Positions 15,246 to 31,821 are shown, numbered from the stretch's first letter. The stretch is DNA of 64,000 nucleotides from an uncultured Planctomycetota bacterium (GCA_963737655.1 CAVTTN010000002.1:4864001-4928000); one strand, 5' to 3'. Notes: generated from the letters alone by a model not told the origin. Made by a program: numbers and translations.

Positions 15246-16412
15246 ATGAGACGCGCCGTGATCGTCGAGGCCGTCCGCACGCCGATCGGGCGGGCCTCGG
15301 CCGACAAGGGATACTTTCGCGACGTCCGCGCCGACGAGCTCTCGGCCGGGCTCGATGAACGCGCTGATCGGGCGCACCGGGATCGACCCGAAGCTGATCG
15401 AGGACGTCCGCTGGGGCTGCGTCCAGCAGCAGGGGGAGCAGGGGTTCGACGTGGCCAGGATCGCCGCGCTGATCGCCGGGCTGCCGGTCGAGGTCGGCGG
15501 CGTGACGATCAACCGCAACTGCGCCAGCAGCCTCCAGGCGATCAACGACTCGGCCATGAGCATCGCCGCCGAGTGCGAAGACGTCCAGATCGCCGGGGGC
15601 GTCGAACACATGGACCACATCCCCATGTCCAAGGATTACAACCCGAGCCGCTCTTGTTCCGGAAGAACAGCGAGGCGATCAACCACATGGGCCTCACCGC
15701 CGAGTACCTGGCGATGAAGTACCGCATCCCCCGGCAGAAGCAGGACGAATTCGCGCTGAGGAGCCACCTCCTTGCGGCGAAGGCCACCGACGCCGGCCTG
15801 TTCCTCAACGAGATCGTGCCGACCTACGGCCGCGACGACGCCGGCCACAAGACGAAGCTGACCACCGACCAGTGCATCCGCCGCGATTCGTCGATCGAGG
15901 CCCTCGCCGCGCTGCCCCCGGCGTTCAACCCGGCCGGAGGCTCGGTCACGGCGGGCAACAGCTCGCCGATCAACGTCGGGGCCGCCGCCCTGCTCGTCAT
16001 GTCCGAGGACAAGGCCAGGGAGCTCGGCCTCGAACCGCTGGCCCGGGTGAGGTCGATGGCGGTGGCGGGCGTCGATCCCTCCGAGATGGGCATCGGCCCC
16101 GTCCCGGCCACCCACAAGGCCCTCAAGCGGGCCGGCCTCTCGCTCGACGACATCGGCTGCATCGAGCTCAACGAGGCGTTCGCGGTCCAGGTCCTCGCGG
16201 TGATGAAGCTGCTCGGCCTCAAGGAGAAGGACGAGCCCAGGATCAACGCCAGAGGGGGCTCGATCGCCATCGGCCACCCCCTGGGAGCCAGCGGAGCCCG
16301 GATCACCACCACGCTCCTCCACCGGATGCGCGACGAAGGCCAATCGCTCGGCCTGGCCACCATGTGCGTCGGCCAGGGGCAGGGCGTGGCGACGATCTTC
16401 GAGCGGGTGTGA
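15246..16412 (+). CDS. 3-ketoacyl-CoA thiolase (FadA-like), two compensating frameshifts (about 15354 and 15648)
   Basis: VRTPIGR; TINRNCASS (catalytic Cys) lies in the shifted frame 15355-15650; ELNEAFA, GGSIAIGHPLGASG, TMCVGQGQG. Confidence 0.9.
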   Translation: MRRAVIVEAVRTPIGRASADKGYFRDVRADELSAGLDERADRAHRDRPEADRGRPLGLRPAAGGAGVRRGQDRRADRRAAGRGRRRDDQPQLRQQPPGDQRLGHEHRRRVRRRPDRRGRRTHGPHPHVQGLQPEPLLFRKNSEAINHMGLTAEYLAMKYRIPRQKQDEFALRSHLLAAKATDAGLFLNEIVPTYGRDDAGHKTKLTTDQCIRRDSSIEALAALPPAFNPAGGSVTAGNSSPINVGAAALLVMSEDKARELGLEPLARVRSMAVAGVDPSEMGIGPVPATHKALKRAGLSLDDIGCIELNEAFAVQVLAVMKLLGLKEKDEPRINARGGSIAIGHPLGASGARITTTLLHRMRDEGQSLGLATMCVGQGQGVATIFERV

Positions 16413-17691: not shown

Positions 17692-18651
17692 ATGATACTT
17701 CGTGAATCGCGGCGCGGTTTCACCTTGATCGAGCTCCTCGTGGTGATCGCGATCATCGGCGTCCTGATCGCCCTGCTGCTGCCGGCCGTCCAGGCGGCTC
17801 GTGAGGCCGCCCGCCGGGCCCAGTGCACCAACAACTTGAAGCAGATCGGCCTGGCGGCGCACAACTATCACGACCGGGTCGGCGCCCTTCCCGGGGCCGA
17901 ACTGGCCCAGGGCGTGACGAGCTTCTCGGCCCTGTCGCACCTGCTCCCCGGCCTGGAGCTGGGGAATCAGTACAACGCCCTGAACTTCTCGCTGCCGAAC
18001 TCGGACCCCTCGAACGCGACCGTGGCGTTCGTGGCGGTCTCGTCGTTCATCTGCCCGTCGGACGTGAACAACTCGGCGCTGGCCTCGATCGGGGCGCAGA
18101 CCAACTACATGGCCGACATGGGGAGCTGGATCGTCTGGATGTCGGCGACCGGGCCGAACGTCGGCCTGATGCCGCCCAACGGCGTGTTCTACGGCAACAG
18201 CGCCACCCGGTTCGCCGACGTGATCGATGGGCTGTCCAACACGGGGTTCTTCAGCGAGCGGATCCTTGCCGACGGCAACAATGCGGTCGTCAGCCCGATC
18301 GCCGACGTGTTCTTCAGCCCGGCGGCGCCGACGACGATCGACGACGCCGTGACGTTGTGCCGGGCGTTGGACGTCAACAACCTCTCCAACCAGTTCCCGC
18401 TGTTCATGGGGGCGCCCTGGGTCAACGGCCAGCACGTGTTCCTCCACGTGACGGGCCCGAACACGCGGTCGTGCGGCTTCTTCGCCGCGCTCCGCGCCGT
18501 GATGCCCGCCAGCAGCCGCCACCCCGGGGGGGTGAACGTGCTGATGGGCGACGGCTCGGTGCGGTTCATCAAGGATGGGATCAGCGTCCCGACGTGGCGG
18601 GCCCTGGGCACCGTCGCCGGGGGCGAGATCGTCAACCAGGGCGAACTTTGA
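17692..18651 (+). CDS. DUF1559 (PulG-like) prepilin-type N-terminal cleavage/methylation protein
   Basis: [48 protein letters not shown]9-DG motif [14 protein letters not shown]. Confidence 0.95.
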
Positions 18652-18669
18652 GAACGGAGCCTGCCGCCC

Positions 18670-19068
18670 ATGACTCGCGCCCTCCGCACGGCGGTCGCCG
18701 CGACCCTGGCCCTGGCCGCGCTCGTCGCGGCCGGGTGCTCGGAGCGGATCGCCGCCACCCCGCTGGACTCCACCCGGGCGATGGACTCCCTGAAGGCCGC
18801 GCTCGAGGCGTGGAAGAAGGGGGAGCCCGCCGACGCCCTGAAGAGCGGGTCCCCGCCGATCGTCGCCCAGGACCTCGACTGGCAGGGCGGGGCGACCCTC
18901 GTCGATTACGCGATCGACGGCCCGGGGGACAGGGTGGATTCCAACCTGAAGGTCCCGGTGAAGCTGACGCTCAAGGCCAGGTCCAGGTCCGGCAAGGACG
19001 TGACCAAGGCCGTGAAGTACCTCGTGACCACCAGCCCATCCATCACGGTCTTCCGGGCCTTCCCCTGA
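18670..19068 (+). CDS. Hypothetical lipoprotein (DUF1559 partner)
   Basis: Lipobox LVAAG-C; directly follows the DUF1559 gene. Confidence 0.75.
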
Positions 19069-19110: not shown

Positions 19111-20499
19111 ATGAATCCGTCCCGATCCCTCGCCGCCCTGGCCGTGGCCTGCGGGCTGGCCTCTCCGTCGGTCGCCTCGGCCGAGGGCACCCTGCTCGCG
19201 CCGCTCTCGAATGAGGACGCCTGGAAGGCGCTCCCCCCGGCGGAGGCCGGCGCCGGCCTCCCTTTGCCGTCCTGGGCCCGGATGCTCGCCCGGTCCCTGC
19301 CCCGGACCACGGCGGCCCTGCTCCAACTGGACCTGGCGCAGCGATCGAAGAACCCGCTCGACCCGAAGCTCCGCGCGGCGATGCGCCACGTCGCCGCCCG
19401 CGCCAACGGCTCCTCCTATGGCGAGGCCTGCGCCGAGGCCGACGCCCGCCGCGCCGGCCTCGCGGCTTCGGCGATCGCGGCCCTCGCCCGGGGCGACCTC
19501 TCGGGCTTCTCGGCCGAGGACCGGGCCGCCCTGGAGTTCGCCCGCAAGATGACCGTCGAGTCGTCGAAGGTCACCGACGCCGAGTTCGCGGCCCTGGTCC
19601 GGGGGTTCGGCGAGAAGAAGGCCGCCGCGATGGTCTTGACGATGGCCTACGCGAACTTCCAGGACCGCCTCCTGATCGTCCTGGGCGCCCCCGTCGAGGA
19701 GGGCGGGCCGCCGCCCCCGGTCGAGGTGGCATTCCGGCCCGAGGTGCTCGCGTCGCGGAAGGCGCCCGCCTCCCCGCCGACGATCTCCGACCTGCCCCGG
19801 CCCTCGGGCAAGGACGTCGTCGAGGACGACGACGGCTGGGAGGCCGTCTCCTACGCCCGGCTCCAGGAGAAGCTGGAGGAGCAGAGGAGCAAGCCGACCC
19901 GGCTCCGCGTCCCCGCGATCGACGAGGTCAAGTCCGGCCTGCCCCCGGGCGCCTCGATGCAGGGCGAGCGGGTCGTCTGGAGCCTCGTCGCCTTCGGCTA
20001 TTGCCCGGAGCTGGCCGTCCCGTGGGAGGCCGTGATGTGGATCAACGGCGAGGAGAACGGCCGGCGATTCGACCGCGCGTTCGGCCTCGGCCTGTTCTGG
20101 ATCGTCACCCGGACGATCGACTGCCCGTACTGCATGGGGCACGTCGAGATGAACTGGGAGGTCATCGGCATGAAGCCCGAGCAGATCGCCGAGAGGAGCC
20201 GGGCCCTGGCCGGCAAGGATTGGTCGAGCTTCCCGCCGGAGGAGCAGAGGGCGTTCGCCCTGGCCCGCAAGCTCACGGCGACCCCGGCGAAGGTCACCCG
20301 CGACGAGATCGACGGCGCGATCAAGGACTTCGGCCGCGACCCGGCGGTCAGCCTCCTGACCTACGTCTGCCGGTGCAACTACATGGTGCGCGTCTCCAAC
20401 GGCTTCCAGCTCTCGCTGGAGCGGGACAACGTCTTCTTCGACTACTACAAGGTGAAGCCGCCGACTCCGGCCGGGCCGGGCGGCGAATCGCGGCGATGA
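19111..20499 (+). CDS. Exported AhpD / carboxymuconolactone-decarboxylase-like protein (two lobes; CxxC = CPYC)
   Basis: Signal peptide; [47 protein letters not shown]. Confidence 0.8.
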
Positions 20500-20567: not shown

Positions 20568-21785
20568 ATGAAGGCGTTCTCGCGACGACTGGGCTGGGCG
20601 ATCGCGCTGGCGGCGCTCTCGGGGGCGGCGCCGGCCTTCGCCGGCGAAGGACCGACCGCGGACTCGCTCTCCGTGGGCACGGCCAGGGCGCTCGACGCCC
20701 TCTGGCCCGGCCACCCCGAGGCGATCGACATGCTGGCCGACATCCTCATCAAGGGCGAGGAGATGGGGGGGGCCGACGGCTGGTTCCGCAAGGCCCCCTC
20801 GCGGACCCGATTCGACTGGGGCGCGACCCGCGCGGCGCTGGATCGGGACGGCGACGGCTCGGTCACCCGGGCCGAGTTCGGGGGCCCCGACGCCGACTTC
20901 GCCCGGCTCGACCGCGACCGGGACGGCCGGCTCTCGGCGGCCGACTTCGACTTCTCGGCGCGCCCCTCCGGGCCGCCGGCCGGCTCGATCCTCCTGGTCC
21001 GGGCCGACCGCGACGGCGACGGCCGTCTGACCCGCGACGAGCTCGACCGGTTCTTCCGGGACAACGACCGCGAGGGCCTGGGCTTCCTCTCGCTGGCCGA
21101 CCTCCAGGAGGCCCTCTCGACCGCCCCGGGGCCGGGCGCCTCCTCGTCGATCCCGACGCGGTCGGTCCTGCTCAAGAGCTTCTTCCGGGGCGAGCTCGGC
21201 GCCTGGCCGCCCGGCCCCCCGCTGGACGCCCCGGCCCCCGACTTCACCCTCAAGGCGGCCGAGGGGGGCGAGGCCGTCTCGCTGTCGAAGCTCGTGGGCC
21301 CGAAGCCGATCGTCCTGGTCTTCGGCAACTTCACGTGCGGGCCGTTCCGGGGGCAGGCCGGCAACCTCCAGAAGCTCCACGCCCGCTACAAGGACCGGGC
21401 GGAGTTCCTGATGGTCTACGTCCGCGAGCCCCACCCCACCGACGGCTGGAGGATGGAGAATAACGACCGCGTGGGGGTGGCGGTCCGCCAGCCCCGCGAC
21501 GCGTCCGAGCGGCTCGAGGTCGCCCGGTCGTGCGGCCGGACCCTCAAGCTCGGCTTCCCGATGCTCGTGGACACGATGGACGACGCGGTCAACAATGCCT
21601 ACAGCGGCATCCCCAGCCGGCTCTACCTGATCGACCGGGGCGGCAAGATCGCCTTCAAAAATGGCCGGGGGCCGTTCGGATTCCGGCTCGCCGAGCTGGA
21701 GCAATCGCTCCTGCTGCTCCTCCGCCAGGAGGCGACCGCCGCCGGACCTCCGGCCGACGGCGATCGACCGCCCGGCGGGCGATGA
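20568..21785 (+). CDS. Exported EF-hand + iodothyronine-deiodinase-like thioredoxin-fold protein
   Basis: Signal peptide; [83 protein letters not shown]. Confidence 0.85.
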
Positions 21786-21836: not shown

Positions 21837-24378
21837 ATGATGCATCCCCGATGGTCCCTCGCCGGCCTCCGCCTCGGGCTCGCCCTCCTGCTGGTCGCGC
21901 CCTGGACCTGGGCCGGGCCAGGATCTGAGGACCTCGCCGATCCGGAAGGCCGAGACGCCCGCCCAGGCGGCCCGCAGGGCGCTGGACGAGTCCTGGCCCG
22001 ACCACCCCGAATGGCTCGACCAGTACACCGACATCCTCAACGACGCCGGCAGCGGCCCCAACGACGGCTGGTTCCGCCGGGCCCGGTCGCAGACCCGGTT
22101 CGGCTGGGGCGCCGTCGCCGGCCGGCTCGACGGCGACCACGATGGCGCGATCTCCCGCAAGGAATTCCCGGGCACCGACCGCGACTTCGCCCGGCTCGAT
22201 CGCGACCGCGACGGGGCCTTGACCCGCGCCGACTTCGACTTCCCGGCCAACAGCGCCCTGAACGCATCGCCGGGGTCGCTCCTGATGTACGTCCTGGACG
22301 ACGACGGCAACGGCAAGGTCACCCGCGAGGAGATGGAGGCGTTCTTCAAGAAGGCCGACGGCGGCGACCTCGGCTTCCTCTCGCTGAACGACCTCCAGGA
22401 GAACTTCACCACCCGCCCGAAGACATCGGGCCTGCCCGACCCGGGCCCCCCGTCGAAGGAGACCCTCATCCGGGGGCTGTTCCGCCGGGAGATCGGCTCC
22501 CTCGAACCCGGCCCGTCGCTCGACCAGAAGGCGCCGGACTTCACCCTCAAGACCGTCGACGGCAAGGGGGAAATCACCCTGTCGAAGCTGGTGGGGCCGA
22601 AGCCGGTGGTCCTGGTCTTCGGCAACTTCACGTGCGGGCCGTTCCGCAGCCAGGCCGGGAACGTGGAGAAGCTCTACCAGCTCTACAAGGACCGGGCGGA
22701 GTTCGTGATGGTCTACGTCCGCGAGGCCCACCCCACCGACGGCTGGAGGATGGACAGCAACGACGCGGTGGGGATCACCACCGCCCAGCCGAGGACGTAC
22801 GAGGAGCGGGTGGCGCTGGCCCGGACCTGCGGCAAGAGGCTCTCGCTCGGGTTCCCGATGCTCGTCGATGGGATCGACGACCCGGTGGGCAACGCCTACA
22901 GCGGGATGCCCAGCCGGCTCTACCTGATCGACCGCGACGGCAAGGTGGCCTACAAGAGCGGCCGGGGCCCCTACGGCTTCCTGCCGGCCGAGCTGGAGCA
23001 TTCGCTGGCCCTCCTGCTCCAGCCGTCGGCCGAGCCCTCGGGCCATGCCGAGGCTCCCGGGCCGACCCCCCCCGTCCAGCTCGCCCGTCCGGTCGAAGGG
23101 CCCGGCCCGGTGAAGCTCCTGAGCAGCGAGGAGGCCTGGAGGCGCCTGCCCCGGGTCGTCGAGGGCGGCCATCCTCCGCTGCCCAACTGGGCCCGGGCCA
23201 CGGCCCACGCCCTGCCCCAGACCACCGCGGCGATGCTGGAGCTGGACCGGCTCCATCGGACCGAGAGCCCGCTCGGCCCGGCCCTCCGCGGCAAGATGCG
23301 CTGGGTCGCGGCCGACACCAACCGCTGCGCCTACGGCCGGGCCACGGCCGAGGCCGACCTCCTCCGCGCCGGGATCGACCGGGCCGAGATCGACGCCCTG
23401 AAGGCGGGCCCCCGGCTCTGGCCGGAGGCCGAGCGAACGGCCCTGGAGTTCGCCTCGAGGATGAGCCGCGACGCCTCCGAGGTCACCGATGGCCAGGTCG
23501 CCGCCCTGATCCGCGCCCACGGCGAGGAGAAGGTCGTGGCGATGGTCCTCCTCCTGGCCGCCGCCAACTTCCAGGACCGCCTGGTCATGGGCCTGGGGAC
23601 CCCTCTGGAAACGGACGGGCCGATGGCGCCGGTCGCGGTCCGATTCGCCAAGGACGGCCCCCCGCCGCTCGTCCCGAACCGAGGCAAGCCCGAAGACTGG
23701 CGGGGCCCGCCCGTCCCCGACCGCGTGGACGATCCCGAATGGGCCGTCCTGGACTTCGACGACCTCCGCAAGGGCCTGGACTCGCAGAAGAACAACGCCG
23801 GGCGGATCCGCGTGCCCTCGCCCGAGGAGGCCGTCGCCCACCTCCCGGCCGACTATCCGAAGCCGAAGTCGCCGATCCGGATCAAGTGGAGCCTGGTCGT
23901 CTTCGGCTACCAGCCGAGGCTGGCGGCGGCGTGGTCGTCCGTCATGAGGGCCTTCGACTCCGATGCCCACCTCGACGACGTCTTCGGCGAGAGCCTCTTC
24001 TGGGTCGTCACGAAGTCCATCCACTGCTTCTACTGAATGGGCCACTCCGAGATGGTGCTCGCGGTCGCGGGCCTGGACGCGGAAGCCCTGGACAAACGGA
24101 CCCGGACCCTCGCCTCGGGCGACTGGTCCACCCTGCCGCCTCGCGATCGCGCCGCCTTCTTCTTCGCGAAGACGCTGGCGCAGGCGCCCTGGGAGATCCG
24201 CGACGCCGATCGGCAACTCCTGATCGAACACTTCGGCCCGGAGAGGGCCGTCGACGTGATCTGGCAGTCGAGCTGGTGCAACTACATGACCCGGGTCGCC
24301 GACGCGTTCCAGCTCCCCCTGGAGCGAGAGAACGTGTTCGCCCCCCCACCGGCGCCCAACCCAGGGGCCAAGCCCTGA
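21837..24378 (+). CDS. Exported EF-hand + deiodinase-like + AhpD-like fusion, probable selenoprotein (Sec at TGA 24034-24036; frameshift near 21910)
   Basis: Signal peptide from 21837; homology to both upstream genes; in-frame TGA aligns to the second Cys of the paralog CxxC and homology continues in frame to 24378. Confidence 0.75.
24054..24074 (+). promoter_or_regulatory. Candidate bacterial SECIS hairpin
   Basis: GG-[bulged T]-GCTCGC-loop GGTC-GCGGGC-CT; the loop starts 27 nt after the TGA. Confidence 0.6.
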
Positions 24379-29410: not shown

Positions 29411-30124
29411 TGTTTTCTGATTTGAGAATCCGTTCGGTTTTGACCCGCAACGATCGACTTATAAGAGACTTGTGTCGATCGAATTTTTGAGCTTCACCGC
29501 CGACTTTTGCCGGAAATGGTGGATCGCTCGGGGGTGCGCGTGAGGGGTCGTTCGGAAGGGGCGGTGGGCGTGGTGGCGGGATTGGGTGATCGGGGGTGGG
29601 GGCGGCCCTCGATGATGGGATCACGGGGGCGGCGGCGTTGGGGCTCGGGTCCGATTTGCGAGGGGGAGGGTGGCCGTGATCGATGGGGATGGATCGGGTC
29701 GGGATGTCGGCTCGGGGGCCGGGGCGACATCCTCTTGGGGCCGGGCCAGTCCCGGAACCATTCGCGATATTTTATAATCTCGATGTGATTCGGGCCATTC
29801 GGATCAAGGACGTCGAGAGAGAACTTTTCCATGATTGCTTGAAGGATCTCACGACCTTCGACTTATTTGGCCCGGATTGCCGGATTGCCGCGGTCTTCCG
29901 AAATCGTCCCTTTCTTGTGAGGCGTGAGGGTCCTGGCTTTCCCAAGGCGAGCCGCGGGCGTCCTTTGCGACGATTTCTCGATCCGGGAGGGGTCTCGGGG
30001 TCCGTCTGGTGTTGGCAGTGGCTGGACGGCGACGGTCCGATCGGTTGGAATGAGGCCGCGATCGACCCGGGTTCGTGGCGAACGAGCGGGGCGGGGTCTT
30101 GCCGATCCGCCGGGAGAGGGTGAC

Positions 30125-31821
30125 GTGGCCTCCGAGAACCTTCCCGCCCTCTTCCGGGCGACCTGCGATCGCCTCGGCCCTCGGGCGGCGGTTCGGTTCC
30201 GGCGCGATGGCCTGTATCGTGACCTTTCCTGGGACGATTACCGCCGACGGGTGGATGAGGCGGCGGCGGGCCTGGTGGCCCTGGGGGTGAAGCCCGGGGA
30301 TCGGGTGGCGATCCTTTCGGAGAACCGGGTCGAGTGGCTGGAGGCCGATCTGGCGGTGCTCTCGGCCGGGGCGGTGGGCGTCCCCTTGCATGCCCCGCTG
30401 TCCGCCGGGCAGGTCGCCTATCAGGTGGCCCATAGCGGGGCCGTCGGGGCGATCGTGAGCGGGCCGGGTCAGGCGGCGAAGGTCCTGGAGGCGAGGGATC
30501 AGGCCCCGGAGCTCCGCTGGATCGTCGCGTTCGACGCGATCGGGGCGGGCGATCCGGGGATTCGCGCCCTTTCGTGGCTCGGATTGGGCGGCGAAGGCCG
30601 GCGGGCGGGGCCGGCGGCGAGGTTGGACGTGGATCGGAGGATCTCGGCGCTCTCTCGCGGCGACCTGGCCTCGATCCTCTATACGAGCGGCACCACCGGC
30701 CCTCCCAAGGGCGTGATGCTGTCTCATGGGAACTTCCTCTCGAACGCCGAGACCACGGCGGTCATCTCCGGGTCGGTGCCGACCGACGTGGTGTTGAGCT
30801 GGCTGCCCTATAGCCATGTTTATGCCCGCACGTGCGACCTCTACGTGTTCCTGGTGGATGGTGCCACGCTGGCCCTGGCCGAGTCGGTCGATGCCCTGAT
30901 GGTCCATCTGGCCGAGGTCCAGCCGTCGTGCATGTCGTCGGTGCCGAGGTTCTATGAGAAGGTCTGGGGCAACCTCCAGGGGGTCCCCGAGGCGGCCCGG
31001 CCGAGGGCGCTTTGGGGGATTTTCGGGCCGAATGTCCGCCATTTCTCCTCGGGGGCGCCCCGTTGCCGAGGCCGGTGGCCGAGGGGTTCCACGCCTGCGG
31101 GATGACCTTGATGGAAGGCTACGGGATGACCGAGTCGTCGCCCGTGATCAGCTTCAACACGCCGGGGGCCGTGAAGGTGGGCTCGGTCGGCCGGCCGATC
31201 CCGGGCGTGGAGGTCCGGATCGCCGAGGATGGCGAGATCCTCACCCGGGGGCCTCACGTGATGATGGGTTACTGGCGAGATCCCGACGCCACGGCGAGGA
31301 CGATCGTCGACGGCTGGCTGCACACCGGGGACGTGGGCCATCTGGATCCCGACGGCTACCTGTTCATCACCGATCGCAAGAAGGACATCCTCATCACCTC
31401 GGGCGGCAAGAACGTCGCCCCGAGCGAGCTGGAACGGCTGATCGTGGCCGATCCGACGTTCGATCAGGCGGTGGTCTTCGGGGACGGCCGGCCGTTCGTC
31501 GGGGCGCTGGTCGTGCCGACGGCCGAGGCGATGGAGGCCGAAGCGGCCCGCCTCGGCGCCCCCCTCGATCGTGACGGCGAATTCCTCGCCCCGGGGCCGA
31601 TCGTCGATGCCTTCTTCGCCCGGGTCTCGACGGCGATGCAGGCCGTGAGCGGGCCGGAGCGGGTGAAGGCGATCCTCGTCCTCGGGCGGCCCCTGAGCGT
31701 CGATCGCGAGGAGGTCACGGCCACGCTCAAGGTCCGCCGGCGGCACGTCCTGGCCGAATTCGCCGACCGGATCGAGGCGCTTTACCAGAGCAAGGCCGCC
31801 TCTGCGGCCCTGGACGTCTAG
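30125..31821 (+). CDS. Long-chain fatty acid-CoA ligase (frameshift in the G run near 31052)
   Basis: YTSGTTGPPKGVMLSHGN; EGYGMTESSP; WLHTGDVG; DRKKDILITSGGKNVAP. Confidence 0.9.

Follow-up and report, generated by a model that had tools for sequence, protein, structure and literature searches.

The 64,000-nt window of planctomycete DNA analysed here contains an open reading frame on the plus strand in which a TGA triplet at 24034-24036 is followed by 113 further open codons and, just downstream, by a hairpin. The question raised by this locus is whether the triplet is a stop codon or is recoded as selenocysteine (Sec, U in protein motifs) under the control of the hairpin. Comparative sequence analysis makes it very probable that the hairpin at 24057-24072 is a bacterial selenocysteine insertion sequence (SECIS) which recodes the UGA as Sec and completes the CxxU motif of a predicted exported redox enzyme. 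The evidence comprises the position of the hairpin, the alternation of TGA with Cys codons, a freeze of synonymous sites, covariation, and the presence of selA, selB and selD.

The interrupted gene and its hairpin

With TGA read as U, the translated frame spans approximately 21916 to a TGA stop codon at 24376-24378. The candidate Sec codon takes the second position of the CxxU motif in an AhpD-type active site, C-F-Y-U-M-G-H (24025-24045), which can be aligned to the CxxC..H motif found in PDB structures of AhpD-fold proteins, Bmp8 among them. Profile, structure and alignment assign the region 23110-24378 to two tandem AhpD/CMD-like lobes, of which lobe 1 is degenerate (N-R-C-A-Y, with one Cys) and lobe 2 carries the CxxU motif. 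In frame with the AhpD part, an EF-hand and a deiodinase-like thioredoxin-fold domain (FGNFT-C-GPF) are encoded at 21997-23022, the latter as a Cys form with its Cys codon at 22633-22635; this part scores 487 bits with NF038285 (cut-off 250) and matches PF00837 (E 1.2e-25) and PF00578 (E 3.3e-10). Three-frame translation places a signal-peptide-like N-terminus at 21837-21920, one base out of frame near 21910-21920. By eye, a similar hydrophobic leader opens 11 of the 11 fused relatives shown, two of which align from 21916, and the fusion of EF-hand, deiodinase-like and tandem AhpD parts is predicted to be exported. Because other genes in the assembly look frameshifted too, the N-terminal frameshift is likely, if unproven, an assembly indel. 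A thiolase-like gene (15246-16412) and an AMP-binding-enzyme-like gene (29924-31821) in the window, both named by eye, are split across frames, which is consistent with indel errors.

Two paralogues precede the gene on the plus strand. The first (19111-20499) encodes tandem AhpD/CMD lobes with C-P-Y-C, the second Cys at codon 20131-20133, and lacks the 16-nt hairpin sequence; the second (20568-21785) is a stand-alone EF-hand/deiodinase-like protein of the Cys form (NF038285, 449 bits). A DUF1559 prepilin-type gene and a small open reading frame (17692-19068) lie upstream of this cluster, and 20 of 66 related loci have DUF1559 no more than 2 kb away from the Sec codon. In a protein collection search, the nearest named homologues of the protein belong to Isosphaeraceae, which makes a planctomycete of this family the probable host.

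The hairpin of the source copy consists of GCTCGC (24057-24062, +21 to +26 after the TGA), an apical loop GGTC, or GGUC in the RNA (24063-24066, +27 to +30), and GCGGGC (24067-24072, +31 to +36), all on the plus strand. The six pairs include one U-G pair, and the spacer from the TGA measures 26 nt. The coordinates of stem and loop given in the preliminary description are accurate. Covariation makes a pair between G24063 and C24066 within the loop likely, which would leave GU exposed. Below the stem, the fold of the source copy has a bulged U at 24056 and lower pairs between 24053-24056 and 24073-24075, namely G24055-C24073 and G24054-U24074. According to the consensus rules for bacterial SECIS elements (Fig. 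2A legend of PMC13188914), the apical loop has 3-9 nt with a G in its first two positions, the upper stem 4-16 bp, the spacer 16-37 nt and the minimum free energy is at most -7.5 kcal/mol. The element lies within all of these limits, with a 4-nt loop beginning with GG, a 6-bp stem, a 26-nt spacer and -8.7 kcal/mol. Nothing essential distinguishes it from this consensus, apart from a sequence that is unusually fixed across four planctomycete orders.

Folding energy is a poor guide to the nature of this element. For 24034-24090 (-24.7 kcal/mol) and for 24045-24085, the hairpin is the structure of lowest energy, but within 24037-24080, the limits originally proposed for it, a different structure takes its place. 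Four folding z-scores of -1.28, -0.83, +1.01 and +1.41 were obtained, with 21, 33, 172 and 185 of 200 shuffles folding as well, the first value referring to 24034-24090. In the Cys paralogue, the conserved stem is absent (P = 0.0), as had been noticed by eye, yet a bulged hairpin does fold there, which is weaker and closes a GGGA loop (-5.2 to -8.8 kcal/mol, z -1.21). As the source fold is no more stable than shuffled sequences and the Cys paralogue has a similar z-score, energy alone decides nothing, and it was dropped as support for a SECIS. The arrangement itself is rare: of the 150,302 TGA triplets of the genome, 134 (0.09%) are followed at a comparable distance by a 6-bp stem closing a GGTC loop. 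A genome-wide scan for TGA plus hairpin was rejected as a means of finding selenoproteins, its 466 matches being mostly non-coding noise among those listed.

Conservation and covariation of the hairpin

A family search yielded matches in 61 of 121 family genomes. From these, 70 loci were used (30 listed ones and 40 regions picked among the strongest of the other matches; two fragments flagged for TGA were left out). They gave 85 motif rows, two loci being without the motif. Once a row duplicating the window and an unrelated CMD protein had been removed, the set comprised 35 TGA copies, found in 33 genomes, and 48 Cys copies (TGC or TGT). The UGA thus aligns to Cys, and the frame is conserved beyond it. 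An even sample across Planctomycetota contained matches in 3 of 401 genomes only.

The same 16-mer stands at +21 to +36 in 35 of 35 TGA copies, whose flanks all differ, and in 0 of 48 Cys copies. The TGA set has 81 four-fold degenerate columns in which the amino acid is conserved; only six of them have an invariant third base, and these are exactly the hairpin codons +7 to +12; the corresponding number in the Cys set is 0 of 56. Synonymous sites inside the Sec clade are otherwise near saturation, with a mean major-base frequency of 0.61. In a quick unrooted tree of 82 of the 83 rows, 34 Sec rows lie on one side of a branch with 97% support, so that the TGA copies represent one origin and not 35 independent cases. 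The Sec clade is sister to two Cys copies (G129 and G130), and neither genome gave a selA or selD match.

In the region just 3' of the hairpin (24079-24156 of the window and the orthologous codons), GC3 is 0.63-0.72 in the Sec set versus 0.83-0.91 in the Cys set, and the Glu codon at +13 to +15 ends in A in 31 of 35 Sec copies versus 3 of 48 Cys copies. The A/T richness of these third positions may serve to avoid competing pairing; the lower GC3 of the Sec set, which is a single clade, extends to other bins as well.

Covariation was examined in a wider set of loci found with the pattern C-x-Y-UGA-M-G-H-x-E-M, which ends 5' of the stem and is therefore blind to the hairpin. It retrieved at least 119 genome and at least 120 metagenome loci, and 112 of the 119 genome loci among the matches listed are titled Planctomycetota (Gemmatales, Isosphaerales, Pirellulales and Planctomycetales). 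Four TGA loci (L192, L193, L205 and one genome locus) bear the titles Chitinophaga or Alcaligenaceae, for which mislabelled bins or transfer are possible explanations. Among the matches listed, 237 loci had 45 nt downstream of the TGA, corresponding to 195 distinct loci, or 194 after removal of a frameshifted one. The exact 16-mer is present in 150 of the 195, and most variants are compensatory.

The covariation predicted for a genuine element, which the preliminary description had proposed looking for among TGA-bearing orthologues, is most evident at the base of the stem. In the 194 loci among the matches listed, the pair +21:+36 is G-C in 155, C-G in 24, U-A in 6, and A-U, G-U and U-G in 2 each, with 3 broken; it is thus paired in 191 of 194, where the maximum in shuffles is 149, and its mutual information is 0.71 bit compared with 0.13 bit for the next third-position pair. 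In the same 194 loci, +24:+33 is C-G in 190, G-C in 2, U-A in 1 and broken in 1, +25:+32 shows a single swap to A-U, which alters two amino acids, and at the ends of the loop +27:+30 is G-C in 191, A-U in 2 and G-U in 1. Overall, 99.7% of stem cells among the matches listed are paired, as opposed to 31-53% when partners are slid, although sliding by +3 still gives 27 both-side changes versus 38 for the true partners. On a tree of 182 rows, third positions changed 2-3 times in the inner stem and loop versus 36-70 times in the flanks. A tree-aware test of independent pairs at +21:+36 comprised only 6 pairs, of which 5.4 were concordant and 0.0 opposed (median p 0.0625), so that this sign test alone falls short of 0.05. 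The earlier proposal had been that the SECIS reading would fall if the hairpin were not conserved among TGA-containing orthologues or were equally present in Cys versions; neither was observed, and the hairpin is conserved in Sec copies but not in Cys copies, with covariation.

These data also bear on the possibility that the 16-mer is kept only by the protein motif L-A-V-A-G and GC-rich codons, the UGA being a stop or a hairpin-free Cys or Trp codon. The unremarkable shuffle z-scores would agree with this, several stem columns are set by first and second codon positions, and the 16-mer occurs once more in the genome with no TGA upstream. However, where Cys homologues have V-A-G, it is encoded in many synonymous ways, wobble positions in the stem covary, and some of the swaps alter amino acids. 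Furthermore, the occurrence of the Sec form follows that of selA, homologues have Cys and not Trp at the aligned position, and UGA terminates ordinary genes in this organism. This explanation is largely refuted already and is regarded as highly improbable.

Comparison with the SECIS of enterobacterial fdhF reveals similarities and differences. The fdhF SECIS of Salmonella has a GGUC loop and a bulged U18 (PMC4489274), and the loop sequence is the same as that found here. Both elements are located in the coding region just 3' of the UGA and have a short GC-rich stem. The G-C pair within the loop, a feature of the fdhF SECIS, is backed here by the A-U swaps, with G..C ends in 191 of the 194 loci among the matches listed. 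The stem sequences are unlike, and the loop starts at +27 here and at approximately +19 in fdhF. The planctomycete element has no conserved bulged U or lower stem. The bulged T at 24056 and two lower pairs of the preliminary description are present in the fold of the source copy, where the bulge is 6 bp below the loop, but they lie outside the conserved element: +19:+37 is paired in 19 of the 194 loci among the matches listed, against a shuffle mean of 21. With no lower-stem pairing above shuffles in these loci, an extended lower stem was rejected, and the likeness to the fdhF bulge is not supported.

The folding of the hairpin is context-dependent, which counts against the SECIS reading. Bases +7 to +14 can pair with the stem in most orthologues, and when +1 to +60 are folded, only 7 of 35 reach P > 0.5 for the stem. 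With +12 to +45 folded, P exceeds 0.5 in 35 of 35 TGA orthologues versus 7 of 48 Cys copies, and the number of TGA orthologues drops with longer 3' ends, to 22 of 35 for +12 to +60 and 9 of 35 for +12 to +75. Following the E. coli paradigm, a ribosome with the UGA in its A site would melt the first ~11 nt, freeing the stem from competing bases, and the 6-bp stem would then form. As in the E. coli pathway, the winged-helix domain of SelB would read the exposed GU of the loop and deliver Sec-tRNA to the UGA; in vivo, the WH3/4 domains of E. coli SelB have been reported to sequester tRNAs that carry the fdhF SECIS as a tag (PMC7590224).

Selenocysteine machinery of the host

The genome encodes selA, selB (PF09107, with the winged-helix domain) and a selD that contains its own TGA. 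Directly upstream of selD (C-A-G-[TGA]-A-G-K) lies a gene with C-A-L-[TGA], which we take from this motif to be SelW/Rdx-like (contig C2, approximately 3,221,370-3,221,700, minus strand). Each of these genes has a stem with a GU apex that is unrelated to the hairpin described here: in selD, the apex is at +33 in 40 of 41 TGA copies, and in the SelW-like gene, at +22 in 30 of 31 copies. Likewise, Sec forms of the deiodinase-like domain (18 of 42 distinct motifs) have unrelated GU-apex stems of their own after the TGA.

Among the TGA-bearing genomes, 28 of 33 have selA; the other five are 54-83% complete, and four of these have selD. In genomes that are at least 90% complete, selA is present in 19 of 19 TGA-bearing but in 4 of 16 Cys-only genomes, with the qualification that kin are not independent.

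A gene for tRNA-Sec was not found in the source assembly by Rfam, ARAGORN, purpose-made anticodon-arm and cloverleaf descriptors or blastn, nor by an HMM built from the tRNA-Sec of 14 relatives or at syntenic positions, and an Rfam scan of the sel loci gave none either. The best Rfam match to tRNA-Sec proved to be a tRNA-Leu, and a 16-nt match at C2:818,500 is no selC remnant. Together with the one-base frameshift after the signal peptide, this negative result is what speaks for the alternative that the hairpin descends from a genuine SECIS but is idle here, selC having been lost and/or the gene being frameshifted, so that the product ends at CFY or is absent. The assembly, however, is 87.7% complete, the two ends of contig C2 do not overlap, and tRNA-Lys(UUU), tRNA-Val(GAC) and the second CAU tRNA are also absent from it, even at a relaxed threshold; tRNA-Ser(CGA) was not found in it either. 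A 95-nt tRNA-Sec (UCA) is present in 3 of 3 genomes of the same genus, and tRNA-Sec was detected in 12 of 12 selA-positive family genomes of that search. Since essential tRNAs are missing too and the same-genus genomes have tRNA-Sec, the simplest reading is that its absence is probably an assembly gap. In addition, frameshift-like breaks occur in other genes, and the hairpins of selD and the SelW-like gene are intact. All 6 SECIS wobble bases are kept in the source copy, while 49-57% of four-fold sites match the nearest relatives (p ~0.01-0.03). An idle SECIS is therefore considered very unlikely, and a functional SECIS remains the preferred reading.

Contig C2 terminates in an integrase-like gene which itself changes frame, and the site of the missing selC may conceivably hold an integrated element. 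A tRNA-Ile with a UAU anticodon is encoded at C2:6624238-6624310; this tRNA was known earlier from planctomycetes (PMC4807772).

The enzyme and its relatives

AhpD fold, CxxU motif and downstream His are all present in the protein, but its AhpD lobe scores below the curated cut-offs of TIGR01926 (43.3 vs 81.8 bits) and NF041238 (29.7 vs 175 bits). PF02627 matches 22 of 40 aligned members at E <= 0.1, and the protein of the window is not among these. Its sequence thus indicates membership in the AhpD superfamily as a separate subfamily. An AlphaFold model of the tandem AhpD part (23110-24375) has a pLDDT of 92.8, and its top Foldseek match over both lobes is human Sestrin2 (E 5.9e-7, TM ~0.5-0.6). 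The superposition is loose (rmsd 9-14 Å) and the sestrin Pfam profile has no match in 40 members, which speaks against membership in the sestrin family; in the model, the likeness reads as a shared two-lobe layout only.

AhpD-like CxxU proteins have been reported from 2005 on (PMC1088965, PMC2398784), and PMC13188914 lists AhpD-like, CMD-like, AhpD-related and deiodinase-like selenoproteins as well as clustering of Prx-like with AhpD-like ones. Common to those proteins and the present one are the AhpD fold, CxxU..H, the occurrence of Cys homologues and neighbouring Prx-like partners in print. Differences are the two lobes per chain, the leader peptide, the fused or adjacent EF-hand/deiodinase-like domain and sometimes two Sec residues per chain. 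Moreover, 92 of the 120 best database matches stop at the UGA and end at C-x-Y, and no displayed name says selenoprotein. A homologue from the cultured Aquisphaera giovannonii likewise stops at the UGA. The fusion of deiodinase-like and AhpD parts is absent from the available lists of PMC13188914, and the tandem subfamily was not found in the available part of PMC4807772 on planctomycete selenoproteins (Table S9); it may be filed within the AhpD-like class of BSepDB (PMC13326102). No description of it was found in the literature searched, and subscription journals or supplements may hold one. Apparently, the SECIS marks a so far unlisted planctomycete subfamily within a selenoprotein superfamily that is already known.

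The N-terminal domain passes the NF038285 cut-off for deiodinase-like selenoproteins (PF00837/NF038285), in which Sec and Cys alternate at the deiodinase position. In contrast to those proteins, the source copy has Cys and is fused to AhpD lobes, and its motif is [CU]-G-P-F without a resolving Cys, whereas the review, in its available part, lists UxxC. Of the 66 loci that span at least 3 kb, 34 have a deiodinase/peroxiredoxin-like domain with a single Cys or Sec no more than 2 kb away. This domain is fused as the Cys form in 8 and fused with an in-frame TGA of its own in 7 (L183, L193, L198, L199, L209, L224 and L244). These seven single open frames contain exactly two in-frame TGAs each, one in FG[SN]FT-U-[GP]P[FY] and one in CFY-U-MGH, and a hairpin follows either of the two, which makes the seven candidate double selenoproteins, the fetched DNA stopping short of their 5' ends.

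AhpD proteins regenerate oxidised thiol peroxidases via CxxC (PMC10460364). By analogy, the CxxU lobe would act as a reductase that recycles the lone Cys or Sec of the deiodinase/peroxiredoxin-like domain, and we lean slightly towards such a relay from the AhpD lobe to a fused or neighbouring deiodinase-like domain outside the cytoplasm. A different function is suggested by the debrominase Bmp8, which shares the CxxC..H lobe, matches the CxxU lobe better in sequence than any other PDB entry (profile E 3e-8) and has been proposed to debrominate through cysteine oxidation (PMC5577590). The partner domain belongs to PF00837 and has a Sec of its own (FG[SN]FT-U-[GP]P[FY]) in 18 of 42 distinct motifs. 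The host enzyme might accordingly be a selenol-dependent reductive dehalogenase joining deiodinase-like and Bmp8-like folds and not a peroxidase-recycling system. More broadly, the hairpin might mark an unlisted family of exported two-module selenoenzymes throughout planctomycetes (deiodinase-like plus sestrin-like tandem AhpD, in some species one chain with two Sec and two SECIS) that would be selenol-based reductive dehalogenases of halogenated aromatics and not plain antioxidants. The lead of Bmp8 over AhpD proteins in sequence is slight (5.6e-8 for the latter), however, and by structure it ranks below AhpD. Asn170 of Bmp8, which has a catalytic role, aligns with Thr here. The Sargasso paper, in its available text, expects a different, redox role for bacterial deiodinase-like proteins. 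Both the dehalogenase function of the host enzyme and its extension to the whole group are considered unlikely; if true, they would provide a bacterial counterpart of, and possibly a recycling partner for, deiodinase chemistry.

The mechanism of recoding is a textbook one, and AhpD-like CxxU selenoproteins have been predicted since 2005. To these predicted proteins, a widespread planctomycete subfamily with more than 230 loci is added. Its annotation is affected by a systematic error, as the catalytic Sec, the His and the ~113 C-terminal residues are missing from the 92 truncated homologues. Covarying wobble pairs and a pair within the loop make the hairpin an exceptionally clear natural test case for the bacterial SECIS model. 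Finally, the fusion of deiodinase-like and AhpD domains, at times with two Sec residues, suggests a possible partner for bacterial deiodinase-like domains.
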